From assembly GCA_964554555.1 (NCBI GenBank), contig CAZKPI010000001.1:4178-38350 (forward strand): a stretch of DNA of 34,173 bases, given 5' to 3'. Numbering within the stretch: position 1 is the stretch's first letter; the number at the start of each line of letters is the position of its first letter. Of this stretch, positions 8,369 to 32,206 are shown piece after piece. The notes under the pieces were generated by a model. It made no database searches, was not told where the DNA came from, and was given only the letters and a program-made list of their open reading frames with translations. The position numbers were made by a program, and so were the translations under genes. This DNA comes from an uncultured bacterium. GTDB taxonomy: Bacteria; Muiribacteriota; Ozemobacteria; Ozemobacterales; Ozemobacteraceae.

Positions 8369-8457
8369 CTTGAAAATACAGAATTCTTGAATTGGACTGA
8401 ACCTTGGAACCCGCCGCCGCAGTATTGGAATGCCAAACCCCAAATCTTGTTCCAAGG
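8369..8457 (+). promoter_or_regulatory. AT-richer segment with reiterated TTG(G)AA hexamers upstream of the C11 peptidase gene; candidate promoter or operator
   Basis: CTTGAA occurs at 8369 and 8386, CTTGGAA at 8403 and ATTGGAA at 8424, spaced about 17, 17 and 21 nt apart. The palindrome CTTGTTCCAAG lies at 8446-8456, and AAGGAG (SD) lies just before ATG 8466. The segment sits in a 313-nt non-coding gap. Confidence 0.3.
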
Positions 8458-8465
8458 AGCACACC

Positions 8466-13197: not shown

Positions 13198-13220
13198 CTT
13201 CCGCCATCATTACCATGGTA

Positions 13221-17004: not shown

Positions 17005-17007
17005 CGG

Positions 17008-18033
17008 TCAGGGGTTGGTCGTAACCGACTGGGAGTTCTCGATGACCTGGCCGTTTTGGATGATCACTTTGGAGTTGATGGAAACGCCCCCCCCGGCGGA
17101 AAGTCCACCGGTGGTGACCGGCTTCCCATTCACCGTAACGGTGACTCCGGCGCCAGTCGAAGACACCGTCACCCGCGAAGCCGCTCCGGCAGACTGCCGG
17201 GCCCGCTCGGCATCCTCCAGGTCCTGGGAGGTGGTGGAATCGATCACCACGGGACCCTGTGACACCTCGGCGGGATCTCCAGCAGGGGTATCCGTTTCCG
17301 ACGAGCGATCGGCACCCACCTCCAAAGGGGTGCCCGCAGAAAGATCGGCCAAATCGCCCCCCCGATCCACCAGGATGCTTCCTGGATCAGCCGCGGGGAG
17401 AGTCAGGTTGGCAGGGGGATTCCCGGTGCCGGAGGGGGGAGGGGAATCAACGGTCTGGACTTCAGGGGCATAGTATTCAAAACTTTCCACCGCCCCTTCC
17501 GCCGTTCGGAACCGGACTCTTTTCTTCTGGATGCGGACCCGGCGGGGAGTTTTGGGAGCCGCCCCCGCGTGCGGCAAGGGTCCATCGCAGAAGGTCTTCA
17601 TCCCATCCAGAACGTCCTTCAGGACCGAGGCCTGGTCTGAATTCAGGCCCGGTCGGCCGGCCATGGGATCCGCCGCAGAAAGACCACTGGAAGTTTCGGG
17701 GTCCCTGGCGGCGGAGGGGCGATCGAAGGAAATCCGGGCCGCCAGGAGATCCTCGATCCGGCCCTCCTCGAGCAACCCGGCATCGGCCAGGCGCTGGAGT
17801 CCCTGCCGGGTAGCCTCCCCGCGCAGGGGAATCCCCGGAGGACAATGAGCCTGGTTATACCGGTCGACCAAGGCCGCGAAGGATTCCATCTCGGCTGGTG
17901 AGAGGGCCCAGACCCCCGGCCTGGCCATGAACACCAAAACGAGGATAAGCACCCAGGAGACGGCCTTCGTTACCCCGAACCAGGCGTCGGGGTCGAGGGA
18001 GGAAAAGGGTTTGGCCGTGGTCATTCGTGGCAT
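17008..18033 (-). CDS. Secreted or anchored hypothetical protein (341 aa from ATG 18033)
   Basis: AAGGAG lies 7 nt upstream of ATG 18033; the track ORF start at 18114 is a GTG. The hydrophobic segment VSWVLILVLVFMARPGVWA|LSP resembles a signal peptide. The central region is acidic and P/S/T-rich. The C-terminus is beta-like and G/T/V-rich (RVTVSSTGAGVTVTVNGKPVTTGGLSAGGGVSINSKVIIQNGQVIEN). The stop is 3 nt before the 846-aa start. Confidence 0.65.
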   Translation of the reverse strand: MPRMTTAKPFSSLDPDAWFGVTKAVSWVLILVLVFMARPGVWALSPAEMESFAALVDRYNQAHCPPGIPLRGEATRQGLQRLADAGLLEEGRIEDLLAARISFDRPSAARDPETSSGLSAADPMAGRPGLNSDQASVLKDVLDGMKTFCDGPLPHAGAAPKTPRRVRIQKKRVRFRTAEGAVESFEYYAPEVQTVDSPPPSGTGNPPANLTLPAADPGSILVDRGGDLADLSAGTPLEVGADRSSETDTPAGDPAEVSQGPVVIDSTTSQDLEDAERARQSAGAASRVTVSSTGAGVTVTVNGKPVTTGGLSAGGGVSINSKVIIQNGQVIENSQSVTTNP

Positions 18034-18121
18034 GGCTTCGCTCCTTGGACCGTGCATCGGCCGCGGAACCCGACGCCCCCCCTGGGCGGGAGGGCGGCAG
18101 GCTCCCGCATTCACCCTCAGA

Positions 18122-19924
18122 TCATTCCGGGGAAATGGTGGCCTCTTTGTTGTCGGAACCCGTTTCCTGGGATGGCGACTCGTCCTTTTCGTCCTCCGGT
18201 TCGGAAGAATCCCCTTCCGAGGGAAGGCCCTTTTTGTACAGTTTATCCCAGATGTTGATCAAGGTGGCCCGGGTGGGCTTGTCCTCGGTGATATCAGGCA
18301 CGGTGTAGTCGGTTCCGCCTGTTTCCTTCATCAACTCGCGGGCGATCGCCAGCCAATCGGGCCCGTATTCGGCGGGAAGGTCGAACCCTGTGAACGCGGA
18401 GTTCTTCTTCAGAAGCTGGAAGGCATAGGCTTTCCGGTAGTCGCCCTTCGACTTCCCCCCGGCTGGGGAATCCAGCATGCCCTTCGGGAAGTAGACATAC
18501 CATCGCTTGATCACGGTCTCCCGGGAGGGCTTGTCCGCCGAGAAGGGTTGGTCGAATTCCTTCAGGGCCTCCCCCAGGGCCTTCCAGGCATCGACATCGG
18601 TGTCAGCCTTGGGCAGGGCGAACCCCAGTTCCTTCCAAACTCCGTTCTTCTCCTTGAATTCCTTCCAAACCTCCCCGAGGGTTCCCGAGGTCTTCGAGGC
18701 CGCCTCATCACCCTCATCTTCCTCGTCATCGTTCTCATCGGCGTCGTCCTCATCCGGCGACGACGCACCCGACCCGCATACGGCACAGGTGGAGCCCGCT
18801 TCACACCCCCACGGCTGGCGCTCCTTCAGCAGGTCCCGGAGATTTTCGGCCAACTTTTCGGCCAGAGGCAACAGATTGCCAAGATCGTCCTTCACCCCTT
18901 TCCTGGCAGACTCGGGTGCCTTTTCCAGGGCCTTCTGGAAATCCTTGTAGAGCTGGTCGATCTCCTGGAACTTCCCGGTCAGTCCTCCTGACTCCTCATC
19001 TCCGGATTTCCCGTCCTTTTTCCCTTTGTCATCCTTCCCCTTTTTCTCCTCTCCCTCTTTGTCCTTCTTCTTGTCTTTCTCGTCATCATCATCGGCTTTC
19101 CCGGAGAGGAAGTCCTTCAGCTCGTCGTTCTCGAACTTGTAGTCCTGGGTCCAATCCGATCCGGCTTTGGTTTTCTGGTCCTTGATCGCCTTTTCGAAGG
19201 TTTTGACGGCCTTTTCCAGGCCATTGGCGATTTCTTCCAGCCCGTCATGCGCCTTCTTCAGGTTCTCGGTCACCGCCTTGGTGGCCTCTCCGGGCTCCGG
19301 GTCCCCCTCTTTCTTTTCCTTCTCGGCCTTCTCGGCCTTCTCGATTTCCTCCTCGGCGGCATCCATCTTCTCGTCAGCTTTGTCCAGGGCTTCGCGAACA
19401 TCGTCGGCCCGGTCGATCTGCTTTTCCACCGCTTCTTTGAAGGCCGCAAACGGCCCGGAGCCCTTCTTGTAGAATTCCTCCTGGACTTTGGCAAGGTCCT
19501 CGAGAGTCTTCACCTTGCCTTGCGTGGAAGTCCCCCATTTGTCATACCAGCTCTCGCCCGCGTATCCCTTCAGGGTCGCTAAAGCCTTGTCGAACCGGCC
19601 GCAGAACTCATGGGCATGGATCAGGGCGTCCACGATCTCGCTCTTGTCGGGAAGCCCCTGGCTTCCCCAGACCAGACCATAGCTTTCGAGACGGCCGCTA
19701 TCAATCTTTCCCAGCATCGATTCGGCCATCTTGATGACGCACTCGTGATGTCTTTTTTCCCGGGCATCCTCGAGTTTGGCATACTCGTCGATCAACTCCT
19801 GCTTCTTGGCCTCCCGGTCCGAGTCGGAAACGGCGGCCTTCTCCCCGGTCGATGCTGTGGGCAGAAGCCAGCCAACCATCAAAACCGCCAGTACCACCAC
19901 CCACCGAATCCTGCTTCGTGCCAT
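18122..19924 (-). CDS. Secreted K/E/D-rich coiled-coil protein (600 aa from ATG 19924)
   Basis: AGGAGG lies 10 nt upstream of ATG 19924. The signal-like N-terminus is MARSRIRWVVVLAVLMVGWLLPTAST. A charged coiled-coil follows (EKQIDRADDVREALDKADEKMDAAEEEIEKAEKAEKEKKEG). There are highly charged tracts KADDDDEKDKKKDKEGEEKKGKDDKGKKDGK and SSPDEDDADENDDEEDEGDE. Architecture and position match 1955-3709. Confidence 0.8.
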   Translation of the reverse strand: MARSRIRWVVVLAVLMVGWLLPTASTGEKAAVSDSDREAKKQELIDEYAKLEDAREKRHHECVIKMAESMLGKIDSGRLESYGLVWGSQGLPDKSEIVDALIHAHEFCGRFDKALATLKGYAGESWYDKWGTSTQGKVKTLEDLAKVQEEFYKKGSGPFAAFKEAVEKQIDRADDVREALDKADEKMDAAEEEIEKAEKAEKEKKEGDPEPGEATKAVTENLKKAHDGLEEIANGLEKAVKTFEKAIKDQKTKAGSDWTQDYKFENDELKDFLSGKADDDDEKDKKKDKEGEEKKGKDDKGKKDGKSGDEESGGLTGKFQEIDQLYKDFQKALEKAPESARKGVKDDLGNLLPLAEKLAENLRDLLKERQPWGCEAGSTCAVCGSGASSPDEDDADENDDEEDEGDEAASKTSGTLGEVWKEFKEKNGVWKELGFALPKADTDVDAWKALGEALKEFDQPFSADKPSRETVIKRWYVYFPKGMLDSPAGGKSKGDYRKAYAFQLLKKNSAFTGFDLPAEYGPDWLAIARELMKETGGTDYTVPDITEDKPTRATLINIWDKLYKKGLPSEGDSSEPEDEKDESPSQETGSDNKEATISPE

Positions 19925-20016
19925 GTCCTTCTTTCCTCCTGTTTGGCCGGGTTTTTGTCTCCACAGTGGATTACCGGAAGCACCACCCATGAGGTTCAGC
20001 CGAATATTCCCCCGAC

Positions 20017-20757
20017 TCATTGACGGTTCAATTTCAGGCTCTCGAACGGCACATCCTTGAACAGGGATTCCCGCTCGAAGGGATCCACCGCCGCCGGAGG
20101 CGTCACAGGGGACCCGCGGCGGGCGATCACCCGCTGTCCTGCCCCCACCTCGACCGTCGTTCCCATCAGGTCAGTGAAGGATACTCTGCCCTCCTCCACG
20201 ACCAGGGTGGTGGAATCGGCATCGACCTCCAGCAGGAACATGGTGCCCAAAACCGCCGTCAACCCATGCGGAGTCTTGATCCTGGTTTCCTGCTGTTGTT
20301 TGTTGAACCGGTAGATCACCAGACCCTTTTCCTGGAGGGCGCGCGGAACTTTGGCATGCACCTCGAAATAGGCTTCTGCCTTCACCACCGCCTCGCTCCC
20401 GTCGGCAAACGCGATCCGGGCCCCACTGGCCCGGCCAGTCCGGACCCCGCCGCCCTCCTTCAAGGGTTGCTCCCCTTGCACCGAGGCGAACCCCTCCCCG
20501 GCCTTGAGACGGGCTTCGACTTCTCCCACCGGTTCCCGAACCTTGGCCAGGGGGGGGTCGTCGGCCCCGCCGCACCCCACCAGGGAGGCGAAGGTGACCA
20601 GAACGGCCAAGCCGACCAGGACTGCCCTCTTTTTCCACGGGGCTTCTTCATGAGCGGTCGCCTGCCACGGGGAGCCGGAGCCCTCCCGGAAAACGGGTCG
20701 ATCCTGCCGCCGCATGCCCCTGGTCCCAACGCATTTCAGGCCCTCCAAGTCCTGCAT
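20017..20757 (-). CDS. FecR-domain lipoprotein (246 aa)
   Basis: AGGAGG lies 8 nt upstream of ATG 20757. The lipobox is AVLVTFASLVG|CGG. FecR-type blocks are RIAFADGSEAVVKAEAYFEV and IKTPHGLTAVLGTMFLLEVDADSTTLVVEEGRVSF. Confidence 0.8.
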   Translation of the reverse strand: MQDLEGLKCVGTRGMRRQDRPVFREGSGSPWQATAHEEAPWKKRAVLVGLAVLVTFASLVGCGGADDPPLAKVREPVGEVEARLKAGEGFASVQGEQPLKEGGGVRTGRASGARIAFADGSEAVVKAEAYFEVHAKVPRALQEKGLVIYRFNKQQQETRIKTPHGLTAVLGTMFLLEVDADSTTLVVEEGRVSFTDLMGTTVEVGAGQRVIARRGSPVTPPAAVDPFERESLFKDVPFESLKLNRQ

Positions 20758-20760
20758 GCT

Positions 20761-22701
20761 TCAACCCTCCTGGGCGACAACCGCCCGTCGTTCGATGATC
20801 ATCAAGGTCACGTCGTCCACAAAGGGCCGTCCCTCGGTATGCGACCGGACGGTGCCAAGAGTTCGATCCCAGAGGTGGTCAAACGGTTCCTGCGGCCATG
20901 TCCCACAATACTCTTTCCATCGTTTGAACTCGAAAGGTTTATTCTCCCAATTCACCGCTTCCACGAAACCATCAGTATAGAACACCAGACGGTCACCCGG
21001 GTCGAGAGAAAAGCTCAGGGAATTGGGACGGAACAAGGGGGAGGACCCCACAGGGAATGCGGGCTGGGCCCTTTCTTCGATTTCTCCGGTTTGTTTCAGG
21101 AGAAAGGCGGGGAGGTGCCCGCCGTAAGCCAGTTCAACCTCCCCGGTGGCAAACTGGAGAGACCCCACCACGAGGGTAATCATCCGCTTCCGTCTGACCA
21201 CGTCAAGGATGACCTGGTTGAGGGTGGTCAGAAGGTCGGCCGGACGCAGGGCCCCCGCCTGCCGAAACTGGCTGACGATGGCTTTGACGATGGTGGTCAG
21301 CATCGCCGCGCCAAACCCATGTCCCGTGACGTCGCCGATCATGAAGACCAGGCGATCCTCACCCAGGGGGAAGAAGTCGAAGTAGTCCCCTCCGGCCTCT
21401 TCACAGGGCAGACAACGGCCGGCACAGATGAATCCTTTCGGGTGTTCGAAGGGCTTGGCCGGAAACAGCATCCGCTGGATCTCTCCGATGGCGCCGGCTT
21501 CTGCCCGCATGATCTGGGCCCGCACCAGATCGAGAAAGGCGATCACCATCGCGGCGGTCAGGGAGCCAAACAGCCAGGCCAGGATGAATGCCCCCATGGG
21601 CAGGTACCACCCCCAAGCCCACAAGGCCGCCCAGCCCGCCACGATCAGACCAGTCAGAGCGGCTCCACTGCGAAGCCAGGGGTGGGACCACGGCCGAAAA
21701 ACCAGACCCGCTCCCAGGAGCCATCCCATCAAGGTGGCCAGCAACCGCCCCCCCGCTCCCGTTCGCGGCTGAACCACCCAGCCTTTGAGCAGGGCGTCGA
21801 ACGAGGCCGCCAGAATCTCCACCCCGGCCACCACTCCAAACGGCATCCGATGCTCGTCATGCAGGATCGACGCACTGACCCCCACGAACACCACCCGATC
21901 CTGGAGAAAAGAGGGGGGAACCCGCTCTTCCAGCACGTCCATGGCGCTGACAACCGGAATCCCTCCCCCCCAGCGAGGCAAGGGCAGGAGACACTGAGAG
22001 ACCCCGTCCTCGTCAGGGGCCGGCAGATCCACGGCCACACCGAAATGCCTGGCCAGCTGGAGGACACAGCTTTCCTTGCCCAGCCGCTCGTCGCGCAGGG
22101 CGACGGAACGGGTCAGGCCATCGCTGTCGACCACCGCCCAGACGAACCCTTCCAGGAAGGCGGCGTCCCGAAACAGTTCCAGGCAGGGAATGTTGCGGAC
22201 ATCCAGGCCGCGCTCGGTCCAGAAGGTCTCGATGATCGAGATCAAACCCACCTTCCCCAGGCGCCGCAGGGTTCCGGCCAGGACTTGATCGTTTTTTCCT
22301 CCATCCCCATCCTGGGGGTTCTGCAGGAGGATGTCGAGGATGATGGCACGAGGATTATTCTGGGCAATAGCCTCCAGGAGCCGGGCAAACTCCGCTCGGG
22401 GCCAGGGCCATCGCAGGCCGATGGTTTCCAGGGCCTCGGTGTCGATGGCGACAATGACGAGCCGCGGGTCCGGAGCCTGATGAGGGGATAACAAGACCAG
22501 GAAAAGGTCGTAGACCCCCCGGTCGAGCCACCGGCTGGTTCCCGGGAGAAACCCCACCAGCCCCAGCAGGATCAGGATCAAAGCCACCAGGGCCAAGGAC
22601 CGGGCCCGCCCCAGCCGCGTAACCAGTTCGCCCTTGACCTGACGCAGACGCTCCCAGAAAGAGACAGGGGCTCCCCCGCCCTTCACTGCGAGATCGACCA
22701 T
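20761..22701 (-). CDS. CHASE2 sensor domain fused to a PP2C/SpoIIE-type serine phosphatase (RsbU-like), 646 aa
   Basis: An N-terminal TM is followed by CHASE2 blocks LVIVAIDTEALETIGLRWPWPRAEFARLLEAIAQNNPRAIILDILL and VVFVGVSASILHDEHRMPFGVVAGVEILAASFDALL. Three TM helices follow. The SpoIIE/PP2C blocks are GGDYFDFFPLGEDRLVFMIGDVTGHGFGAAMLT and LVFYTDGFVEA. Confidence 0.9.
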   Translation of the reverse strand: MVDLAVKGGGAPVSFWERLRQVKGELVTRLGRARSLALVALILILLGLVGFLPGTSRWLDRGVYDLFLVLLSPHQAPDPRLVIVAIDTEALETIGLRWPWPRAEFARLLEAIAQNNPRAIILDILLQNPQDGDGGKNDQVLAGTLRRLGKVGLISIIETFWTERGLDVRNIPCLELFRDAAFLEGFVWAVVDSDGLTRSVALRDERLGKESCVLQLARHFGVAVDLPAPDEDGVSQCLLPLPRWGGGIPVVSAMDVLEERVPPSFLQDRVVFVGVSASILHDEHRMPFGVVAGVEILAASFDALLKGWVVQPRTGAGGRLLATLMGWLLGAGLVFRPWSHPWLRSGAALTGLIVAGWAALWAWGWYLPMGAFILAWLFGSLTAAMVIAFLDLVRAQIMRAEAGAIGEIQRMLFPAKPFEHPKGFICAGRCLPCEEAGGDYFDFFPLGEDRLVFMIGDVTGHGFGAAMLTTIVKAIVSQFRQAGALRPADLLTTLNQVILDVVRRKRMITLVVGSLQFATGEVELAYGGHLPAFLLKQTGEIEERAQPAFPVGSSPLFRPNSLSFSLDPGDRLVFYTDGFVEAVNWENKPFEFKRWKEYCGTWPQEPFDHLWDRTLGTVRSHTEGRPFVDDVTLMIIERRAVVAQEG

Positions 22702-22729
22702 CCCAATCCCCTGTCACCCCTCCAGACCG

Positions 22730-23077
22730 TCAGTTCATCACCTGCCGAACAGCCGTGGCCCGATCCGGAGTCACCTGGGCATACATCGTCAAACCCACCG
22801 AGGAAAAACAGGCCATCACCGTGTTGGCGGCGGCACAGAAGCACAATTTGAGATCCGGCATCGACAAAGTCTTCGACACGATATCGATCAGCTCGCCCAG
22901 GGCGGCCGAACTGACCAGGGGACAGGCGGCCAGGTCGAACACCAGGCGCCGGGCGCCCTGGCCCACCAGATCCTCGACCCGAGCCCGGACCTGCTTACCC
23001 GCCTCGAGGTCGAGGTATCCCTGCAATCCCAGAATGACCACCTGCCCCTCATGCTGGACCGAAAGTGAGAATGCCAT
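22730..23077 (-). CDS. STAS-domain protein (anti-sigma-factor-antagonist type, SpoIIAA/RsbV-like), 115 aa
   Basis: AGGAGG lies 7 nt upstream of ATG 23077. The fold pattern VVILGLQGYLDLEAGKQVRARVEDLV...RRLVFDLAACPLVSSAALGELIDIV has the Ser-Ser at the position of the phosphorylatable Ser in SpoIIAA/RsbV. It is a paralogue of 25786-26133. Confidence 0.85.
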   Translation of the reverse strand: MAFSLSVQHEGQVVILGLQGYLDLEAGKQVRARVEDLVGQGARRLVFDLAACPLVSSAALGELIDIVSKTLSMPDLKLCFCAAANTVMACFSSVGLTMYAQVTPDRATAVRQVMN

Positions 23078-23119
23078 CTCGTTTCCTCCTGCCGGGGCCA
23101 GGCCAGGACCCCTGTCTGC

Positions 23120-25633
23120 TCATGGATCTCGCCCCTCGGAACGACCTGAGAGGGCTTGCATTTCCTTGACGGTATAGACCGGCCGGCCGCGACGGACCTG
23201 GCTGGTCTTCTCGACCCGGATGGCAACCCGATCATTGGGGCGACCGGCCACCCCCGCCGGGAGGGATACCTGGAAGATGTGGTGATCATCGGTCCGGAAC
23301 AGCCAGAATTGGTGCCGTTGGTCGAACCGCACCAGGGTCCCTTCCTGGAATCCCTCGCCCAGGCCTCCCTGACCAGGCCTGATCGAAACACCGGTCGGGC
23401 GGCCTCCCGCGGCGGGGCCCCCAGACCGGGAGGGACCCGCCGCATTGCCGGGAAGCAGGACGTTCGTCACGATCCAGACGGTGAACAGGACTGTTCCCAA
23501 TACCACCAGCCACATCTGGGCGTAGGAATCACCCAGCAGGCGGCTCATCACCCCTCCGCCGGGTTCGAAATGGATGGCCCGGACCTGGGCCAGCAGTAAT
23601 TCGATCTGTTCCCGTGACAGGAAGCGGGCCAGGGGACCCTCGCGGTCCCCCGAGGATCGGATCACCCGCAGATTCTGGGCCACCCGGTCAGCCAGCTTCT
23701 GCAGGAACTCCCGGCGGGGCCCGCCATCCTGCCCGGCCAATCCCTGCAGGGTCACCACGAGATCGGCCTCGGGGTTGACCAACAGAAGGTTGCCGAATCC
23801 TTCCAGGAGGGCGGGATCGTGGAGCTTCTGCAAAGCTTTCAGGACCAGCGGACGGGCCCGGGAAAACCGCATCTGGGAGAGGCCGGTCAGAGCGGCTCGC
23901 CGCGCTCGCGGATCCCTGGCATCGTCGATCCAGACGTTGATCCGTTGCAAGAAAGCGGCCTCGTCGAGTCTCCGGAAATGCCGAATGGCCTGGTTGACCA
24001 CCAGGGGCTGGTCGTGGAAGCAGAGCGTGGCGAGATGAGGAACCAGGATCCGGGAACCGAAGCGGGACAGAAGTTCCATGGCCGGAATAATCACCGCGGT
24101 CTCAGCGCTTTCGAGGGCCTTTTCCACCCACAACAACAAGCGTGAGTCACGTGAACGGGTCTTTTCCATCCAGACAGCGAGGGCATTCAACAGATCAGGA
24201 CGGGGCTGGGGCGGCAGAACGGCCACCAGATCCAGGGCACCCGCCCCGGCCGCCAGCCGCTTCAGGAACTCGGCGGCCGGATCGGTTTCCACCCGGTCCC
24301 CCGCCTTGCCGTCGGTGGCGGGCACTTCAGGGACGACAGTCTTCCCGGAAACCTGGGATGCCAGATCAGGCCGGGGACCAGTACCCGCGGCAGGCGGGGG
24401 AACCTTTTCCCGGGCGACCAGCGATGGATCAACGGGCGGTGCCTCCCCCCCCGAAGGTTTCGAGGGGGGCATGGACTCCCGCTCCGGCAGATCGGGAAGG
24501 GTTGGCCCGGCCGGCCCTTCTTCCACCGGCGGTGCCACCAGAGCCGCCCCATCCATCATGCCCGCGAGATGATCCCTCGCCCGCTGCAGGGCCCGTCCGA
24601 GAATGGCCCCGGGCGTGCCAGATTCGAGGCCGACCAGGGCCATCGACTCGGCCACCGCCTTCATGATCGGACGGCCTTCCGGGAAGTCTTCACCGCGCCG
24701 GCAAAACATCTCCGCCACCCGGTCCAGGAATTCGGGATCGGGATTGTTGCGAACCAGGTCGAGGACGATGGCCAGGACACGCCCGGGGATCAACCCTTCT
24801 TCCAGCATCATGAGCAGGATGGGAGCTATGTCTGGAAAGGGGAAGACCAGCATCAGGCTGACCGCCACCATCCGGACTTCCTCCCGGGGCGCCGCGGCCA
24901 TTTCTTTCAGCAAGCGGAGGCTTTCCGTGGGATAGAGACGCTGCAAGGTCCGCACCGCCATGATCCGGACGGAGAGGGACCGATGCAGGAGCAACCGGGG
25001 CAAGGAAGGCAATCCCACCGCGGGATCAAGGTCCAGCAGTCGGGGATAGGCCCGCAACAACACGGCCGGCGGGGCATTCTGCAGGAAAGCCTGGATCCGC
25101 GCGGCATGACCGTCGGGATCGATTTCTCCTGAGGCCCGAAACAGGGCACCCCAGGCGGCGGGACGCTCCTCACCCACCAGGCCGTCTCTCAGACACGATT
25201 CCTGAAACGCCCGCGGATAGCCGCGGAGGGTCCCGAGGAGGCGATCCCAGGCGGGTTCAGAGGCGGCGCGAAACCGGCTCAGCCAAGCCTGGGGAGTGAC
25301 ATCTTCGGAAGGGGCTTGCCGCTCAGCGCCCCCCTCCCCTCCGACTGCCGCCGCCGGGTGCGCCGCCCCGCTGGTCACCTGCGGTGCGGCAGAATCGCGG
25401 CGGGTTGGCACCCCGCCGAGAATCTGGGTCAGGACCAATCGGCACTCATCGTCGGTCTCTTGCCGAACATGGACCTCGAGACGGTCCCGGACTTCAGGAA
25501 CGCTCAGGAATCCCTGCAGTCGCAGGATGGCTCCCAGGCGGGCCAGAGGGGTTTCCGCCTCCAGTTCGAAGAGCAACCCCTTGACGATCTCGCCGAGATC
25601 CCCGGTTCGCGACTCTGCTGGAGGTTTCTCCAT
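23120..25633 (-). CDS. Large HEAT/ARM-like repeat protein with one C-proximal TM helix and a small extracytoplasmic C-terminal domain (837 aa from ATG 25633)
   Basis: HEAT-like repeats include LLHRSLSVRIMAVRTLQRLYPTESLRLLKEMAAAPREEVRMVAVSLMLVFP. The TM helix is MWLVVLGTVLFTVWIVTNVLL. The C-terminal domain is GTLVRFDQRHQFWLFRTDDHHIFQVSLP. It is collinear with its paralogue 26234-28522. The track ORF start at 25744 is a TTG; in-frame ATGs occur at 25678 and 25633, so the start is uncertain. Confidence 0.8.
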   Translation of the reverse strand: MEKPPAESRTGDLGEIVKGLLFELEAETPLARLGAILRLQGFLSVPEVRDRLEVHVRQETDDECRLVLTQILGGVPTRRDSAAPQVTSGAAHPAAAVGGEGGAERQAPSEDVTPQAWLSRFRAASEPAWDRLLGTLRGYPRAFQESCLRDGLVGEERPAAWGALFRASGEIDPDGHAARIQAFLQNAPPAVLLRAYPRLLDLDPAVGLPSLPRLLLHRSLSVRIMAVRTLQRLYPTESLRLLKEMAAAPREEVRMVAVSLMLVFPFPDIAPILLMMLEEGLIPGRVLAIVLDLVRNNPDPEFLDRVAEMFCRRGEDFPEGRPIMKAVAESMALVGLESGTPGAILGRALQRARDHLAGMMDGAALVAPPVEEGPAGPTLPDLPERESMPPSKPSGGEAPPVDPSLVAREKVPPPAAGTGPRPDLASQVSGKTVVPEVPATDGKAGDRVETDPAAEFLKRLAAGAGALDLVAVLPPQPRPDLLNALAVWMEKTRSRDSRLLLWVEKALESAETAVIIPAMELLSRFGSRILVPHLATLCFHDQPLVVNQAIRHFRRLDEAAFLQRINVWIDDARDPRARRAALTGLSQMRFSRARPLVLKALQKLHDPALLEGFGNLLLVNPEADLVVTLQGLAGQDGGPRREFLQKLADRVAQNLRVIRSSGDREGPLARFLSREQIELLLAQVRAIHFEPGGGVMSRLLGDSYAQMWLVVLGTVLFTVWIVTNVLLPGNAAGPSRSGGPAAGGRPTGVSIRPGQGGLGEGFQEGTLVRFDQRHQFWLFRTDDHHIFQVSLPAGVAGRPNDRVAIRVEKTSQVRRGRPVYTVKEMQALSGRSEGRDP

Positions 25634-25785
25634 TCCCGCTGGTTTCCCTTCGAGCCTTCTCCGGGGGTACCACCCCATCCAACCCCGCCAAACCCAGGGG
25701 CCGCGGTACCACCCTTCCCATGATATCCCATGGCCCAAGGGCAATCAACGCTGAGGAAGGGGGAAAAGGGGAAAGCCGGTCGGCC

Positions 25786-26133
25786 CTAAGTGCCAATCCG
25801 GGCGAGGGCTTCCGTTCGGTCGGCGGCGACGGAGGCATACAAAGCCAGTCCCACCGCCTGGAAGCAGGTGTTGACCGTCTCGCTCAGACCGCAGAAGCAG
25901 ATTTCCAGGGAAGGGTTGGTCAGGGTCTTGGACACGAGATCCACCAGGTCGCCCATCGCCCCGGAACTGACCAGGGGTGCATCGGCCAGATCAAAGACCA
26001 AGCCACGAACACCCTTGGCAAGCAGGTCTTCCACCTTCCCACGCAGGCCCCGGCTGGCTTCCTGATCGAGATAGCCATGGAAGACGATGATGGCGATCGA
26101 ACCATGCTCGAGGAAATCGGCCGTAAAGGCCAT
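25786..26133 (-). CDS. STAS-domain protein, second copy, 115 aa
   Basis: ATG 26133 is preceded by GGAGACGGAAGC. The sequence is MAFTADFLEHGSIAIIVFHGYLDQEASRGLRGKVEDLLAKGVRGLVFDLADAPLVSSGAMGDLVDLV, with the SSG motif conserved. It is the same length as 22730-23077 and clearly similar to it by eye. Confidence 0.85.
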   Translation of the reverse strand: MAFTADFLEHGSIAIIVFHGYLDQEASRGLRGKVEDLLAKGVRGLVFDLADAPLVSSGAMGDLVDLVSKTLTNPSLEICFCGLSETVNTCFQAVGLALYASVAADRTEALARIGT

Positions 26134-26233
26134 GCTTCCGTCTCCACCCAAGCCTGAAATCCGAGGGACCAAACGGATCCCTCGCCCATCAGGCTAATGG
26201 ATTTGCACCGGGATGGCAAGCCTGGCCTGCGGG

Positions 26234-28522
26234 TCAATACTCCCACAAAACCGCTGTCGACACGGGCACCCCCTGGAGGCGACGACCTGAATCGCGGACC
26301 ATCAAGACGATCGACTGTCCCTCCCGGACCTTGGCTGACAGGGGAATCATGACGGGAAAGGTCTCCCCTTCGGGGGTCCGGAAGAACCAGATGCGGGATT
26401 TGGCATCGTAGCTTACCAGCGTTCCCCGACGCTTGGCATCGCCGAATGGGGTACCCGCCACTTGGGGCAGGGACGGGGCAGGGACCGCACCACGGGTGTC
26501 CCGGGAACGAAGACCGCCCGGGGCCCATCCTCGCAGGCCCAACCACACGCCGATGCCTCCCAGGATCACGATCAGACCGATGGCCAGAACGCGCCCTCCC
26601 CCGAACAGGTCGAACCACCCTTCCCTCTGCTCAGGCCCCAGGTGAACCGAGCGGATTTCCTCCAGAAGATCGGTCACCTGGGCGGGAGACAACAGGCGGG
26701 TGACGCGGGCCAGGAAACCGTCACCGGAAGCGCCAATGACCGCCAGATTGGCCTCAACCCGCCCGGCCAGGGTTTCAAAATGGGGCCGCAGCCGGGAAGA
26801 CGCTCGCCGCGCCTGCCGGCGAAGGCGCATCACCGTCTCCCGATCCGGGTTCAACAGCAGGATGTTCCCGAAATTGGCGATCAATTCAGAATGGGTGGCA
26901 CCCTCCAGGACCTGCCAGACCAGGGGAGCCGCTTGGGAAAAGGGCATCTGGGCCAATCCAATGAGAGCCGCCCGGCGGGTGGTCCGGTCGCCGCACCCGC
27001 TGATCCAGATCCCGATCCGGCGGAGAAACCCGGCCGGATCCCCTTTCCGGAACTGGCGGATGGCCTGATTCATGACGAGAGGATCGGCATGCAGGCTCAA
27101 CACGGGAAGGTGGGGCAACAGGAGCCGGGGGGCCCAGGTCCCCAGCAACTCGATGGCGATGGAAACCACTCTGGGTTGCTCATCCTGTAGCCGGTCCACC
27201 AGCCAGGAAACAACCCCGGCGGGGGGCTGGGTCCCTTGAGGGAAGCGGCGGAAGAGGGCGAGGAGGTCCGCGGGAGTGGGAGAGGCCGGCAACGAGAGGG
27301 GGGTTCCATCGGGAGAAGGGGAGAGACCGCACTGCCCCTCGCCGCCGGGGCCGCCCTCAGAACCTGCGACGCGAGGGCCCCCAGCCGTGGACTCCATCCC
27401 CCCGCGAGAACAGACTCCGCCCTCAGACGGGTCAGATCCGGGTAGCGGAACCGGTGTTGCCGTCGAAGGGTCGGAGAGGTCCGTCAAGACTTCGGCCACG
27501 ATATCGACCGTCAAAAGACCGGTCAACCGCTGCCGGGCGGTCTCCAGAGCCCGGCCAAGCACCATCCCGGGAGTGCCGACCTCCCGTCGCACCATCACGA
27601 TCGACTCCGCCAGGGTCTTGAGCAAGGGCCAGAGCGTGGGGATCTCCCCTCCGCGACGGCAGTAGAGTTCCGCCAATCCGGCCAGGAGAGAGGGCTCGGG
27701 GTTGTTCCGAACCAGCTCGAGAACGATCGGGGCCCCGGAGGGAGGAATCCGGCCTTCCTCCAGGGCCGACAGCAAAGGGCCTTGCATGTGGGAGAGGGGA
27801 AAGGTCCCGAGCAAACCGACCGCCATGAGGCGGACCGCCTCTTCCGGCGAGGCCAGGAGCTCCCCCACCAGCCGGACCGCTTCTTCCGGAAACAACCGGT
27901 AAATCGTCCGGACCGTCAACACCCGGACCGGTTGGGAAGGATGCCGCAACAGCGCGGGAAGCTGTGGAACAACCAGCTCCGCATCGCCTTCCAGAAGGAT
28001 GGGAAGAAGCCTCAGGAGAGGCAGAGCGGTGGTTGCCCGGACGATCTTTTGCACCCGGGAATGGTGTTCCGCGGCCGGCCGATGCTGGCGTGAATAGGCC
28101 AGCAGTTGGGCAAGGACGGCGGGACGATGGTCCAGGGCCAACGACTGGTCAATGATGTCCCCCACTTCCCCACTCGGCAGGGTCGCGAGGAACCCGGCGA
28201 CCGACCCCGGCCCCAGGCGGGGAAGTTCCTGTAGCCATTGCCGCCGGCGGGTCTCCGCCCCGGCGCCCCATCCAGGACCGCCGAGGGTTCCCAGATCCGC
28301 GGGGAGGTGGTCGTCCACCTCCCCGCCCAGGAAATGGGCCAGCATCTCCCGACACTCGGGATCTTCCTCCCGGGTCAGGCGGTCACGAAACAGGGCGGCG
28401 GCCTGACCGGGAGGCAGGCAGGCTTGGATCGAGAGCATCGCCCCCATCCGCACCAGGGGGGCCGAGGCCTCCAGGTTTCGCTGAAGAGCCGTCTGTACAT
28501 CGAAACCGGAACGCGGCAACAT
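26234..28522 (-). CDS. Large HEAT/ARM-like repeat protein with a C-proximal TM helix and small external domain, second copy (762 aa)
   Basis: LLRHPSQPVRVLTVRTIYRLFPEEAVRLVGELLASPEEAVRLMAVGLLGTFP and IVLELVRNNPEPSLL match IVLDLVRNNPDPEFL in the paralogue. The TM helix is VLAIGLIVILGGIGVWLGL. The C-terminal domain is GTLVSYDAKSRIWFFRTPEGETFPVMIP. Confidence 0.8.
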   Translation of the reverse strand: MLPRSGFDVQTALQRNLEASAPLVRMGAMLSIQACLPPGQAAALFRDRLTREEDPECREMLAHFLGGEVDDHLPADLGTLGGPGWGAGAETRRRQWLQELPRLGPGSVAGFLATLPSGEVGDIIDQSLALDHRPAVLAQLLAYSRQHRPAAEHHSRVQKIVRATTALPLLRLLPILLEGDAELVVPQLPALLRHPSQPVRVLTVRTIYRLFPEEAVRLVGELLASPEEAVRLMAVGLLGTFPLSHMQGPLLSALEEGRIPPSGAPIVLELVRNNPEPSLLAGLAELYCRRGGEIPTLWPLLKTLAESIVMVRREVGTPGMVLGRALETARQRLTGLLTVDIVAEVLTDLSDPSTATPVPLPGSDPSEGGVCSRGGMESTAGGPRVAGSEGGPGGEGQCGLSPSPDGTPLSLPASPTPADLLALFRRFPQGTQPPAGVVSWLVDRLQDEQPRVVSIAIELLGTWAPRLLLPHLPVLSLHADPLVMNQAIRQFRKGDPAGFLRRIGIWISGCGDRTTRRAALIGLAQMPFSQAAPLVWQVLEGATHSELIANFGNILLLNPDRETVMRLRRQARRASSRLRPHFETLAGRVEANLAVIGASGDGFLARVTRLLSPAQVTDLLEEIRSVHLGPEQREGWFDLFGGGRVLAIGLIVILGGIGVWLGLRGWAPGGLRSRDTRGAVPAPSLPQVAGTPFGDAKRRGTLVSYDAKSRIWFFRTPEGETFPVMIPLSAKVREGQSIVLMVRDSGRRLQGVPVSTAVLWEY

Positions 28523-28534
28523 GAGGTTCAGAAA

Positions 28535-28572
28535 TCCGCCCCCTCCCTGGCGGACTCGAGGGAGGGGGCGGA
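28535..28572 (-). terminator. Strong intrinsic-terminator-like hairpin on the minus strand (14-bp perfect GC-rich stem followed by TTTCT)
   Basis: TCCGCCCCCTCCCT (28535-28548) pairs perfectly with AGGGAGGGGGCGGA (28559-28572), with a 10-nt loop. On the minus-strand transcript it starts 17 nt after the stop at 28590 and is followed by UUUCU. It ends only 12 nt before the ATG at 28522. Confidence 0.55.
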
Positions 28573-28589
28573 CGGCAAGCGATATCTCC

Positions 28590-30104
28590 TCACCGGGTGG
28601 AAACCCGCTCCGGCGGCACGGTAATGGTCCCGAACGGGGTGTTGCGGATGGTCACTCCGGCCTTGTTATCCGTGACCTGGGGAGTCCCCAGGTCCACTCC
28701 ATTATAGAACCAGTGGCCGGTTCGTCGGTCCTTGACCAGGTTTCCATTTTGGGAAGCCGATTGCGCCGCGCTCGGCGCGGGTGTCGATGTGGTCGGAGCC
28801 GGAGTCGGAGCCGGGGAGGGGGCCTCGGTGACCTTGGCCGGCGTGGTGTTGGAACCTTGCTGGCGAAGGGCGGCCACCAATCGTTCGATGGTTCCCGGGG
28901 GGAGATCCCGCTGGGGGAGGGTGACGCTTTCCCCCTTGAGAAGCTTGGCTTTTTGCTCTGGGGTCAGGCGGTCGATCAGATCCTGGATGTCCGCGTCGGA
29001 GGTGGTGATCGTCGCCTCGGTCGGCCCTGGACTCTCCGTGGAGGCCGGCGGGACGGTGGCCGCTGGTTCTTCCTGGTCTTCGGAGGGGGTGGAAACGGGC
29101 GCTTCGGTGGGAACTTGAGCGGTGGAGGGGGCCTGGGCGGTCGAAGGAACGGTGGATGGCTCCGGCGTCTCGACGCCCGCCTTGATAGCGTCTTCGTTCG
29201 GATCGATGCGGGCACCGTGATCTTCGTCGAACCCGTATTTGTTCGTATCCCCGCGCCGGTTGGTGGCCTCGACGTGCACCTTCTTCGACTCCTGGTCATG
29301 CGTCACCTTGGTGATCACGTAGCCACCGTCGAGCACGTCGCCCTCTTTCAGGTCCGTGGCTTTTCGGGTGGTGACGACGCCCTTGCCTCCCATCCCGCTG
29401 AGGATGTTGGTATTGGCGGCATTGGCGGCAGGGGCGACCACCACCGCTCCACCTGTTTCCCCCGAAGTGGTGCTGGGCTCTGGCGGATTGTACACCGTCG
29501 CCAGGATGGTATCGACCTTGGACTTGACATCCGTAGCGGTTCCCGGGGAGATCTCTTCGATCTTGTCGAGGATGTTCGGAGTGTCCTTGAAAAAGTCATT
29601 GGGAAGGAAGGTCCATTCACCCGGATTGTTCGCAAAGCTGGTAAACATCCTGGGGAGCTGGTTGTCCCAGAATTTGATCTCCTCCTCCAGGCTCTTCTTG
29701 GAGTCGATCCGGTTGAAAGTGACTCCTCCCGTGTGATCCCGCCAGGCCAGGAATCCCCGGGAAAAGTCGAGAGGGTTTCCTCGCATCGAGTCTTTCACCT
29801 TCCGAACCGCTTCTTTTTTCGCAGGATCTTTCCAGTCGTAATCCATCAACTGCAAGAGTGTGGCCAGATATACATACCGGCGGTACATCTCCTTCAGGTT
29901 GTTGGCATTTTCCCCCCGCTTTCCAAACAGGTCGTCAGAAGCGTTGTCCAGGGTCCGAAGGGTTTCCGAAAATCCAGTCTGGTGTTTGGCGATGGCGGCA
30001 TCCCCGAAGTTCTCGGCGGCCCACCCTTGGGAGACCGGCAGAAGAACCAAGGGCAATCCGATCAGAACGGTGACCACAACGAGGCTTCGAATAGTGATTC
30101 TCAT
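28590..30104 (-). CDS. Secreted hypothetical protein with T/P/S/A-rich linkers (504 aa from ATG 30104)
   Basis: AGGAGG lies 7 nt upstream of ATG 30104. The signal peptide is MRITIRSLVVVTVLIGLPLVLLPVSQGWA|AE. The N-terminal region is helical. The linkers are ETPEPSTVPSTAQAPSTAQVPTEAPVSTPSEDQEEPAATVPPASTESPGPTE and TEAPSPAPTPAPTTSTPAPSAAQ. I recognise no domain. Confidence 0.75.
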   Translation of the reverse strand: MRITIRSLVVVTVLIGLPLVLLPVSQGWAAENFGDAAIAKHQTGFSETLRTLDNASDDLFGKRGENANNLKEMYRRYVYLATLLQLMDYDWKDPAKKEAVRKVKDSMRGNPLDFSRGFLAWRDHTGGVTFNRIDSKKSLEEEIKFWDNQLPRMFTSFANNPGEWTFLPNDFFKDTPNILDKIEEISPGTATDVKSKVDTILATVYNPPEPSTTSGETGGAVVVAPAANAANTNILSGMGGKGVVTTRKATDLKEGDVLDGGYVITKVTHDQESKKVHVEATNRRGDTNKYGFDEDHGARIDPNEDAIKAGVETPEPSTVPSTAQAPSTAQVPTEAPVSTPSEDQEEPAATVPPASTESPGPTEATITTSDADIQDLIDRLTPEQKAKLLKGESVTLPQRDLPPGTIERLVAALRQQGSNTTPAKVTEAPSPAPTPAPTTSTPAPSAAQSASQNGNLVKDRRTGHWFYNGVDLGTPQVTDNKAGVTIRNTPFGTITVPPERVSTR

Positions 30105-30136
30105 ACAATTCCTCCTGAGACTTCGGAATTTCTGGT

Positions 30137-30832
30137 TCAACGGGAAGGCGGAACGAACGGCAGGTCCACCGGTTGCCACCGGACGGAGGACCGGGAGGAC
30201 GTGGGAAGGACCACCGACAAGGGAAAGGTCGCGGCGGGAACGGTGGGATCATCCGACCCCACAACCAGCGATATGTGGAGAAACTCCTGCCGGCAAGGCG
30301 CGGCCTGGGGGTGAACTCTTTGATCGCGAAAGAAAGGGAAGACCCGAAACATCTTGATGCGGTCACCTCCGAACTCCAACGGAGATTCGGTCACTCCATC
30401 GATCACCGCCTCCCGGATCACCCGCAGCCTCTCACCCTGGCGCCGCAGGGAATAGGTGACCGTGGCGGCTTCCCCGTGAAAACAGACCGATTCGGCAACC
30501 GATCCCGCATCGACTTCCCCGGGACGAAACACTCCGATCTCGCCTGGGGCAACCGCCTCCTGGCCGGCCCCCACGGTCACCGCCTGGCTCCGCAGGAGAT
30601 CCTGGTGGAGGGACCGCCAAAGACGTGCCGCGGCGGCAATCGCATCGAGCCGATCGACTCCATGGGCGGAACTGCGAACCAGACTGGAATACAATTTCTG
30701 GACCCCCATCAACAGCAAGGCGGCCAAGACCAGACTGACCAGGACTTCCACCAGCGTAAACCCACGGGAAAACCCCCGGAAGACGGAAAGGCAGGATCCG
30801 GCTCCACTCGGTTGCCTCACACCCCCGGTCAT
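30137..30832 (-). CDS. Pseudopilin (prepilin-type signal), GspJ-size class, cassette 3 (231 aa)
   Basis: GFSRG|FTLVEVLVSLVLAALLLMGVQKLY has E at +5. AHGVDRLDAIAAAARLWRSLHQDLLRS aligns with the 217- and 221-aa paralogues. The start overlaps the upstream stop (TAATG at 30832). Confidence 0.85.
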   Translation of the reverse strand: MTGGVRQPSGAGSCLSVFRGFSRGFTLVEVLVSLVLAALLLMGVQKLYSSLVRSSAHGVDRLDAIAAAARLWRSLHQDLLRSQAVTVGAGQEAVAPGEIGVFRPGEVDAGSVAESVCFHGEAATVTYSLRRQGERLRVIREAVIDGVTESPLEFGGDRIKMFRVFPFFRDQRVHPQAAPCRQEFLHISLVVGSDDPTVPAATFPLSVVLPTSSRSSVRWQPVDLPFVPPSR

Positions 30833-32040
30833 TACTGGAATCCCTCGAGCAAGGAGGCAGGTGAACTGCCAACCGTCGCTGGCCGCCCGGGAAGGATACG
30901 GGTCGGAGGATCCTCGGAGGGGGCTGATCCGGCAGATTCGGCCGGTTGAACGTTGTCAGAGGGTTCTGTCCACAAGGTGTCGAGAGGGTTGCCCATCCCG
31001 GGATCGACAGACGGTTCGGAAGGTTCGGCAGAACCAGGCTCTTCTGGCTCCCCGCCAGCAGAAGCGCTGGCTGTTTTCACGAGACGGCCAGGCTCCGGCG
31101 AGGTCTTGACCGCGGCCGTTGCCCCATCGACCCCGATGGCGTCCAAGGAGGCGGAAGGCGGAGTGGCAAGAGCGGCGGCCGGGGGACGGGGGACGGCAGG
31201 CCGGCGCCCAAGAGTGCCGGAAAGGCCGATGAGAAGGTGCTCGCCGGCGGCGACCTGGCGTTCCTCACCACGGGCGAGGGTCAGGACCCGGACCCGGCCC
31301 TCGAAGACTTCGACCAGGGTTCCCGTGGCTGGGGAAACCCCCACCTGGAAAACCGTGCCCATCGCGGCAATGGCTGTCTGCGGGGTTTCCAGCCGAAACG
31401 CGGTCCCGGGGCGGGTGATCCGGACCAGCATGGTTCCCGCGAGAAGATGGACGGCATCAGCGGCAAGCCGGAAGGTACCTTCCCACGCTTCGAGGACCAC
31501 CGCTTCCCCCAAGGCGAGCCGGGCATGCCCAGCCTGGAGGGTTCCCAGTCCGGCGGGAATGACCGCCATCCGGCCGAGATCTGCCCCGCCTGCGCTCACC
31601 GCCCCATCCAGGAGGCGAGCCACAATGGGAGGGGAGGAGGGAGACACCGGAGGGGCCACCGGGAGGGTGGGAGTGGCCGGCTCCGATGCAGGTTGGACCG
31701 TTTTGGAGGCCACCCCTGAGGACGGAAGTGACCGGAAGGGTCCCAGGGCCAGCCCAAGGCCCAGCATGGCGAGAACGGCCCCCCCAATCAGGATTGGCGC
31801 CCAGGGAACCCATGGAATGGGCGAGGCCGGAGAAGGAGCCGGGGTGGTGTTGGTGGGCAGGGAAACCGGAGGAACCGGGGGCAAGAGGTCGAGGGTGACC
31901 TCCACCCAGGTTCCCAGTTGGCCTTCGAGCCGGGCCACCTGCTCGAGACAGTCCCGGCATTCCGGGCATTCCCGGGCGTGTTGCCGGTCTTCCGGGGTGG
32001 GCCGGAGAGGGCGGTCCTGGGTGAGGAGCCGTTCTCTCAT
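30832..32040 (-). CDS. Anti-sigma-factor-like membrane protein: N-terminal zf-HC2 motif, one TM helix, periplasmic FecR-like domain (402 aa from ATG 32040)
   Basis: MRERLLTQDRPLRPTPEDRQHARECPECRDCLEQ contains H-x3-C-x2-C. The TM helix is WAPILIGGAVLAMLGLGLALG. The FecR-like block is FRLETPQTAIAAMGTVFQVGVSPATGTLVEVFEGRVRVL. The C-terminal tail is acidic and P/S-rich. The track ORF extends to 32190, so the start is uncertain (no clear SD at 32040). Confidence 0.7.
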   Translation of the reverse strand: MRERLLTQDRPLRPTPEDRQHARECPECRDCLEQVARLEGQLGTWVEVTLDLLPPVPPVSLPTNTTPAPSPASPIPWVPWAPILIGGAVLAMLGLGLALGPFRSLPSSGVASKTVQPASEPATPTLPVAPPVSPSSPPIVARLLDGAVSAGGADLGRMAVIPAGLGTLQAGHARLALGEAVVLEAWEGTFRLAADAVHLLAGTMLVRITRPGTAFRLETPQTAIAAMGTVFQVGVSPATGTLVEVFEGRVRVLTLARGEERQVAAGEHLLIGLSGTLGRRPAVPRPPAAALATPPSASLDAIGVDGATAAVKTSPEPGRLVKTASASAGGEPEEPGSAEPSEPSVDPGMGNPLDTLWTEPSDNVQPAESAGSAPSEDPPTRILPGRPATVGSSPASLLEGFQ

Positions 32041-32206
32041 CTGACCAACTCTGGGACAACTCACTCCTGCTTCCTGCCTTCCTGAAGGGACTCCGTAAAC
32101 TTTGGAGGCCAGCCCTCGCGGTTGGGTTCCAATTGCATGCCATAGGATTCTACCTGAACCGTGCCCAAAAGGTTGGGAGGAACCCTCCAAGAATTTTCCA
32201 TCGGGC

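Follow-up and report, generated by a model that had tools for sequence, protein, structure and literature searches.

In a 34,173-nucleotide stretch of DNA from an uncultured bacterium of the Ozemobacteraceae (the window, 34 kb out of a 46.9-kb contig), a membrane phosphatase gene and two STAS genes stand together with two genes for large HEAT-repeat proteins that carry a transmembrane (TM) helix, and the whole block lies between cassettes of pseudopilin genes. We tentatively read this locus as a partner-switching-like phospho-STAS module with an unlinked kinase that is built into type IV-filament (pseudopilin) cassettes, with the HEAT-repeat membrane proteins (HEAT-TM) as its candidate output. 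What the switch controls is probably a surface filament and not a sigma factor, a link that is suggested by gene neighbourhood. As judged from the sequences, a four-gene core is conserved in three genomes, the phosphosite of the STAS proteins is canonical, the phosphatase motifs are intact, and both a kinase and a sigma factor are absent at the locus. HEAT-TM is the best available, though unproven, candidate for the output partner of the STAS proteins, and here, too, it is the gene neighbourhood that points to it.

Between positions 28522 and 20017 (all coordinates are those of the window), the list of open reading frames (ORFs) and Pfam matches identify six real genes, all on the minus strand. 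Read in that direction, they are HEAT-A (26234..28522; 762 amino acids (aa); Pfam HEAT_2 and HEAT, E 2e-12), STAS-A (25786..26133; 115 aa counted from the ATG; Pfam STAS, E 9e-9), HEAT-B (23120..25633; 837 aa counted from the ATG; HEAT_2, E 3e-10), STAS-B (22730..23077; 115 aa; STAS, E 4e-8), a CHASE2-PP2C phosphatase (20761..22701; 646 aa; CHASE2, E 4e-43; SpoIIE/PP2C, PF07228, E 1e-37) and then a FecR-domain protein (20017..20757; 246 aa; FecR, E 2e-8) with a signal sequence and an 'LVGC' lipobox. A preliminary description of this DNA, made from the sequence, had given gene order, coordinates, sizes and domains on the minus strand in the same way for the first five of these genes, without the FecR gene, and all of these were confirmed, including the presence of a SpoIIE-type phosphatase. 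For HEAT-B, the ATG was taken as the start in place of an upstream TTG (874 aa), because the family alignment favours the ATG. From HEAT-B through the phosphatase and FecR genes into the downstream cassette, as far as a 405-aa gene, the genes are co-directional and separated by gaps of -11 to 42 nt, and the gaps between HEAT-A and STAS-A and between STAS-A and HEAT-B are 100 nt and 152 nt, respectively (from the ATG starts).

The two STAS proteins, which are 50% identical, are single-domain proteins that match Pfam STAS above the gathering score. The preliminary description had placed a Ser-Ser-(G/A) of both proteins at the position that is phosphorylated in SpoIIAA and RsbV, and its interpretation depended on the conserved serine not lying off this site. 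In a HMMER alignment with SpoIIAA (PDB 1th8), the second Ser of 'PLVSS(A/G)' and the first Ser of 'MDSSGLG' fall in one column, such that Ser57 of both STAS proteins sits on the phospho-serine of SpoIIAA; Ser56-Ser57 is conserved in STAS-A, and the 1tid chain has an Ala at the phospho-serine position. In a subfamily search over 5.8 billion clusters, Ser57 and its flanking motif were invariant in all five members (5/5). The match of the window proteins to the NCBIfam anti-sigma-antagonist model TIGR00377 is below the cutoff (~36 versus 53 bits). Where the context of a STAS subfamily gene is visible, it lies within ~3.3 kb of a HEAT-TM gene and also close to a CHASE2-PP2C gene (4/4).

In the phosphatase, CHASE2 occupies residues 44-331 and is followed by further TM segments and by the SpoIIE/PP2C domain at 448-638. 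The topology that we read from the sequence would be a basic N-terminus, a first TM segment, CHASE2 outside the cytoplasm, three more TM segments, and PP2C inside. Alignment to the PP2C domain of Rv1364c (PDB 3ke6, E 3e-18) showed that the motifs GGDYFD, GDVTGHG, TDG and DDVT are kept, and with its metal-binding and catalytic motifs intact the domain is apparently catalytically competent. An intact PP2C in turn points to a substrate that becomes phosphorylated, so that a kinase should exist somewhere. Enzymes of the SpoIIE/RsbU type characteristically act on STAS proteins that are encoded beside them. Orthologs of the phosphatase are 37-49% identical, and across the syntenic lineages the PP2C identity is 47-49%. 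We found no description of a CHASE2-SpoIIE phosphatase in the literature that we searched.

The FecR gene adjoins the CHASE2-PP2C gene also in three of the related loci (L005, L007 and L003), and the FecR-domain protein is a probable periplasmic co-sensor of the CHASE2 domain. Such a pairing is known from the Burkholderia BiofilmReg operon, where a secreted FecR-domain protein is encoded beside a CHASE2 transmembrane sensor (PMC5192318). In that operon, a histidine kinase and a response regulator form the output, and LysM is present on the FecR protein (PMC5192318), whereas the output domain in the window is a PP2C, proposed to act on STAS, and Pfam searches of the window ORFs found no HisKA, HATPase, REC or LysM domain. 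As a side observation, another metagenome contig (L003, 2101-6840) has two tandem CHASE2-PP2C paralogs beside a divergent FecR gene and prepilin-like genes, and STAS and HEAT-TM genes were not found in its visible 7.4 kb.

To search for the kinase, a hidden Markov model (HMM) was built from the HATPase_c_2 domains of recovered proteins, seeded with RsbW and SpoIIAB sequences, and run against every ORF of at least 60 aa in the window and in 17 fetched loci (2174 ORFs). No RsbW/SpoIIAB-type (GHKL) kinase was found in any of them, the best hit (E = 0.019) being noise, and this includes the syntenic loci L005 (20 kb) and L011 (17 kb). Likewise, neither Pfam on the large ORFs nor tblastn with the extracytoplasmic function (ECF) sigma factor of the relatives revealed a sigma-70 family gene in the window. 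The absence of both partners from the window, as the preliminary description had it, is thus borne out. In the relatives, an ECF sigma factor lies ~4 kb away and is paired with a FecR-type anti-sigma, not with RsbW; this applies to the ECF sigmas of both L005 and L015.

HEAT-A and HEAT-B are full-length paralogs with 33% identity and the same architecture. Both match HEAT_2 above the gathering score, and the AlphaFold2 (AF2) model shows an all-helical solenoid, which places them in the HEAT-repeat class, and in both, the AF2 secondary structure predicts one TM helix near the C-terminus. The AF2 model of HEAT-A has all-helical solenoids at residues 1-347 and 417-628 with a Pro-rich disordered linker between them, followed by the TM helix (~645-661) and a C-terminal beta domain with an OB-fold (~696-761). 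Over its full length this model has an overall pLDDT of 58, with values of 80-90 at residues 417-598. Foldseek matched HEAT-A solely to generic HEAT scaffolds, among them the PP2A-A subunit and karyopherin-beta. From a 15-sequence alignment, the C-terminal domain was modelled (pLDDT 84) as an OB-type barrel of five strands, whose nearest PDB structures are CspA and IF1 (TM score ~0.5-0.6), with nothing at E <= 1e-3. HEAT-TM proteins lack a signal peptide, which makes a cytoplasmic location most likely for the N-terminal ~640 residues and would put the OB-fold in the periplasm. HEAT-TM was chosen as the candidate output because, alone among the four core proteins, it combines a large protein-binding scaffold in the cytoplasm with the lack of any other assigned role.

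Two other assignments for HEAT-TM were considered. The possibility that it is a hidden kinase was rejected, because the cytoplasmic part is all-helical, matches HEAT solenoids only, and has no alpha/beta GHKL fold. An assignment of the C-terminal domain as an HR domain of the GspC/PilP type, which would have provided a link to the secretin, is unsupported; the domain is a generic OB-fold resembling CspA and IF1.

HEAT-TM-OB is a rare protein family, apparently undescribed in the literature searched, and no description of a HEAT-STAS pairing was found there either. An exhaustive HMMER search of 1.84 billion representatives gave 291 hits at E <= 1e-3 and 35 at E <= 1e-30, about 15 of the latter being full-length members. 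They share the motifs LPxLLxHxSxxVR, LVRNNPD, PHLPVLCFH, NQAIR, FGNxLLMNPE and, at the C-terminus, G.L..YDP.N..W. A scan of 185,579 species genomes, with one genome per species and peptide patterns that catch close relatives only, found HEAT-TM in a single genome, the metagenome-assembled genome GCA_964428355.1, which has three paralogs; a metagenome scan added one further short contig, and a k-mer search with HEAT-A matched HEAT-A alone. With a family this rare, chance adjacency to the switch genes is unlikely.

Of the two HEAT-TM proteins in the window, HEAT-B is the one closest to those of the relatives (39-42% identity to the L005, L015 and L016 proteins). A neighbour-joining tree does not place HEAT-A and HEAT-B as sisters, though HEAT-A sits on a long branch and its placement is uncertain, and the STAS-linked HEAT-TM genes are scattered across the close clade. 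We also considered, and for the HEAT genes rejected, a recent tandem duplication that would have produced the HEAT-A/STAS-A and HEAT-B/STAS-B pairs: the HEAT genes are old paralogs and non-sister in the tree.

Nine HEAT-TM genes have a visible genomic context, the two copies of the window included. The genes for FecR, CHASE2-PP2C, STAS and HEAT-TM occur together in three diverged lineages, namely the window and two other uncultured genomes, and the core proteins have diverged to 31-66% identity across these lineages. In the first of the two relatives (L001/L004/L005), the order is HEAT-TM (808 aa, P0070), STAS (115 aa), CHASE2-PP2C and FecR (211 aa), followed by the same cassette as in the window; prepilins, an ECF sigma and a FecR-type anti-sigma lie divergently upstream. 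In the second (L007/L011), the gene order of the core is rearranged, such that STAS, PP2C and FecR are followed by a convergent HEAT-TM gene just downstream (848 aa, P0073; 34% identity to HEAT-B over the full length).

The remaining HEAT-TM genes have neither STAS nor PP2C nearby. One (776 aa, P0071; L009/L015) ends a cassette that is ordered like cassette III of the window, and another (810 aa, P0072; L010/L016) lies between a pseudopilin cassette and genes for T2SSF and T2SSE. The latter two (519 aa and 685 aa; L016 13021-16652) are situated just downstream of P0072, with one 91-aa gene between, and filament motor genes were seen nowhere else. For a 738-aa protein (P0074, L017), prepilin genes are 8-10 kb off, and for a partial gene on a 3-kb contig (L012), a prepilin gene is ~0.8 kb off, while an 847-aa protein (P0075, L013) is surrounded by genes for Peptidase_C11, DUF3857 and an ABC transporter. 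The pairing of each STAS gene with a HEAT protein, which the preliminary description had noted, hence holds from the side of STAS, where all four genes are near HEAT-TM. From the side of HEAT-TM it does not extend as far, since only four of the nine genes are close to STAS.

How might such a module work? A Ser kinase encoded elsewhere would phosphorylate Ser57 of the STAS proteins. A signal from the envelope would be read by FecR in the periplasm together with CHASE2 and would then activate the cytoplasmic PP2C, which would dephosphorylate STAS-A and STAS-B, and the dephosphorylated STAS would bind its output partner. The candidate for this partner is the adjacent HEAT-TM protein, with its HEAT solenoid in the cytoplasm as the proposed binding part; via its TM helix and periplasmic OB-fold, the protein may couple the signal to how the nearby pseudopilin cassettes are assembled or used by a motor of the T2SS/T4P (type II secretion system/type IV pilus) type. 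A more specific and considerably more speculative version, which we think improbable, is that HEAT-TM-OB constitutes a new class of partner-switch output. Each dephospho-STAS would have its own HEAT-TM paralog, dock on the solenoid of this protein in the cytoplasm and so gate, through the TM helix and the periplasmic OB-fold, which pseudopilin cassette is assembled by a shared T2SS/T4P-type motor. This would amount to a post-translational, sigma-independent choice of filament that is driven by an envelope signal via FecR and CHASE2.

Several observations weigh against a phospho-STAS module with HEAT-TM as its output. Five of the nine HEAT-TM genes (in L015, L016, L017, L013 and L012) have no STAS or PP2C nearby, such that the STAS pairing is not a property of the whole family and HEAT-TM can do its work with no switch beside it. 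Kinship among the three STAS-linked lineages means that shared descent accounts for part of the linkage. The full-length AF2 model of HEAT-A, with its overall pLDDT of 58, is of low confidence, and the residues right after the TM helix of HEAT-TM are rather basic, which runs mildly counter to a topology with the N-terminus inside. Moreover, the kinase is undetected rather than shown to be absent: the HATPase_c_2 search found none in the window and the 17 loci, but 'kinase-less', the term of the preliminary description, is a statement about the locus, in three lineages. What stands of that earlier interpretation as a whole is thus a phosphorylatable STAS, an apparently active phosphatase and a locus with neither kinase nor sigma, whereas the STAS pairing proved not to be family-wide. 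Its idea that the HEAT proteins may be the switch targets is a sensible hypothesis, drawn from gene neighbourhood.

A further point is that HEAT-TM follows the pseudopilin cassettes (7/9 genes near prepilin genes) more faithfully than STAS (4/9), an observation that supports a conventional partner switch about equally. In such a switch, the true partners of the STAS proteins would be an unlinked RsbW-like kinase/anti-sigma and a sigma factor that transcribes the pseudopilin cassettes, and HEAT-TM would be a structural or accessory component of the filament system that merely shares its location with the switch. We consider this unlikely, but it is the alternative that survives best. The STAS and PP2C sequences are ordinary, unlinked kinases are documented, HEAT-TM tracks T2SS E/F as well as the cassettes more consistently than it tracks STAS, and the cassettes of the relatives carry their own transcription control in the form of an ECF sigma and a FecR-type anti-sigma. 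However, in none of the three lineages was a kinase or an RsbW-type anti-sigma found within 17-34 kb, and the only sigma factors nearby are those ECF sigmas, whose FecR-type anti-sigmas do not use STAS antagonists. In addition, the HEAT-TM gene still adjoins the module after the gene order was rearranged in L007/L011.

Another explanation is inherited synteny without direct coupling, in which the sensor module and the HEAT-TM/pseudopilin genes belong to separate pathways and are together by descent in a small clade. The continued adjacency of the four genes despite 31-66% identity and one rearrangement makes this distinctly improbable, as do the tight packing of the genes, their common direction with cassette II and the fact that the window, which carries two HEAT-TM and two STAS genes, has kept both kinds in two copies. 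On its side are the restriction of the association to three related lineages, the five of nine HEAT-TM genes outside it, and the CHASE2-PP2C orthologs in L002 and L003, which are without STAS or HEAT-TM in the short stretches that are visible. Least probable of all is that the STAS proteins are constitutive ligand- or nucleotide-binding accessory subunits of HEAT-TM and that the PP2C acts on another substrate, for instance Ser/Thr in the Pro-rich disordered linker of HEAT: the sub-cutoff TIGR00377 scores, the long disordered linkers and the failure to find a STAS-specific type of kinase nearby would suit it, but Ser57 and its flanking motif are invariant and lie exactly on the phosphosite, STAS-PP2C adjacency is conserved, and acting on an adjacently encoded STAS is what phosphatases of the SpoIIE/RsbU type generally do.

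The preliminary description had located the block between pseudopilin cassettes, and both flanks indeed encode prepilin-type proteins, as seen from N_methyl matches and G-F-[ST]-L-x-E motifs; this prepilin motif with a hydrophobic helix is present in six ORFs beyond those with N_methyl matches. The window has three paralogous pseudopilin cassettes, 4486-8152 (+), 10000-17004 (-) and 28590-34113 (-). Cassette II lies downstream of the block and is co-directional with it; as a feature defined by N_methyl matches, prepilin motifs and synteny with L005 it spans 10000..20020 (-). Cassette III (28590..34113 (-)) is upstream and ends just before HEAT-A, and its order is matched in L009/L015. The common plan is a large protein of ~820-846 aa followed by 2-3 prepilin-type proteins, the large protein of the third cassette having 460 aa. 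Pairwise identities between the cassette paralogs are 25-44%, for example 44% for the 846-aa versus the 821-aa protein and 37% for the 194-aa versus the 193-aa protein. GspE/PilB assembly ATPase and GspF/PilC platform protein were not found in the window.

Cassette II comprises genes for a secreted protein of 632 aa that is charged, for two proteins of 368 and 846 aa, for prepilin-type proteins of 194, 221 and 193 aa, and for two more of 405 and 532 aa. As listed, the 532-aa gene overlaps the 405-aa gene by ~190 nt, and its true start is therefore probably downstream. Cassette III encodes the 460-aa protein, a 175-aa pilin-like protein, a 452-aa FecR-type anti-sigma-like protein, a 231-aa prepilin and a 529-aa protein. 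The 460-aa protein aligns with the 846-aa protein in the C-terminal part of the latter (319-845), and from this match it may be truncated or split. The 452-aa protein (30832-32190 (-)) stands in cassette III without a sigma gene. In L005 (1752-2846) and L015 (3596-4654), a homolog of it directly follows a 176-aa ECF sigma, and the window appears to have lost or relocated this sigma. Between the end of the cassette III gene (28590) and the start of HEAT-A, the sequence and its RNA fold reveal a G+C-rich hairpin (28534..28573 (-)) with AUUUCU after it. It has a folding energy of -35.8 kcal/mol (z -3.2), and none of 200 shuffles was as stable; a simple terminator scan made no call there. It looks like a terminator or attenuator.

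Some further features of the window and its relatives deserve mention. Three large proteins with long low-complexity regions have no significant Pfam family (18122-20020 (-), 1913-3709 (+) and 28590-30179 (-)), and one of them sits between the FecR gene and cassette II. The 632-aa protein is K/E/D-rich, the 529-aa protein is Pro/Thr/Ser-rich, and a 598-aa protein has coiled-coil-like Pfam matches; at least the first two have N-terminal signal or anchor sequences. Proteins of this kind may be secreted substrates or filament-associated proteins. A clostripain-family Peptidase_C11 is encoded at 8430-9866 (+), after the plus-strand cassette, and also at L013 250-2493 near P0075, so that its association with these loci may be recurrent. 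A second, canonical HEAT-repeat family (785-909 aa, with strong HEAT_2 matches) occurs beside the loci in both related genomes (L001 16845-19202, L015 10244-12973 and L007 1-807) and is absent from the window; it is ~19% identical to HEAT-TM, as measured for the L001 member. The G+C content of the window is ~63%, and there are numerous spurious antisense ORFs, some of them very long, such as 20020-22491 (+), with 823 aa opposite the phosphatase gene. They have no family matches and low-complexity translations, and are artefacts that stem from the high G+C. No RNA genes came to light when the window was scanned with Rfam and for tRNAs.

In comparison with the Bacillus switches RsbU/RsbV/RsbW-sigmaB and SpoIIE/SpoIIAA/SpoIIAB-sigmaF, the locus has in common a single-domain STAS protein with an aligned phospho-serine and an adjacent SpoIIE-family PP2C with intact motifs. 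It differs in that the window locus and its syntenic relatives are without a GHKL kinase/anti-sigma or a cognate sigma, that the input is a periplasmic CHASE2 with a FecR partner, and that the STAS genes neighbour large HEAT-TM proteins. Pseudomonas SiaABCD has a diguanylate cyclase as its non-sigma output, under the control of the membrane PP2C SiaA and of a partner-switch protein; its operon includes the genes for the SiaB kinase and SiaD, and SiaC is not a Pfam STAS protein. The window PP2C has a weak NCBIfam match to SiaA and a PDB match to 6k4e, whereas no GGDEF protein is found in the window. The window shares prepilin-type cassettes with type IV filament and T2SS-like systems, but GspE/PilB and GspF/PilC are seen only near P0072 in L016.

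Phospho-STAS modules with a non-canonical output are known from Vibrio (SypE/SypA), Nostoc (HmpU/V/W), Rhodobacter (RbaV/W/Y) and Bordetella (BtrU/V/W), in loci with surface polysaccharide, motility, secretion or gene-transfer functions, and for SypA, RbaV and HmpV, the dephosphorylated STAS is believed to have a target that is either unknown or not a sigma factor (PMC8256260). In these modules the kinase is encoded in the same locus, or is fused as in SypE, whereas the window locus has none. Furthermore, HEAT-repeat membrane proteins and CHASE2 sensors are not part of any of them, and here the gene neighbourhood itself indicates a candidate target. A further precedent comes from Anabaena, where, according to the authors, the PP2C HenR and the STAS domain of the STAS-glycosyltransferase All4160 control a non-sigma output; the candidate kinases Alr3423 and All2284 came from a two-hybrid screen and, judging by their locus numbers, are encoded at other sites of the genome (bioRxiv 10.64898/2026.04.08.717354). 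This resembles the window system in being a PP2C-STAS pair with unlinked kinases, although in the window the kinase is inferred. By contrast, the STAS domain of All4160 is fused to its enzyme target and the phosphatase receives its input through a receiver domain, whereas the STAS proteins of the window are free-standing, their phosphatase has a CHASE2/FecR input, and the candidate target is a separate HEAT scaffold.

If a conventional switch should turn out to be correct, the locus holds an ordinary module of the Rsb-like kind, and the gene for its kinase is located elsewhere. If, on the other hand, HEAT-TM is the output of the phospho-STAS module, this would be a partner switch that acts directly on a type IV-filament apparatus, and it would define a new protein family composed of HEAT solenoids, a TM helix and an OB-fold. 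The poorly understood CHASE2/FecR sensor pair would thereby gain a phosphatase output. The direct targets of dephosphorylated SypA, RbaV and HmpV are not yet known, and for this class of switches the locus offers one concrete candidate.

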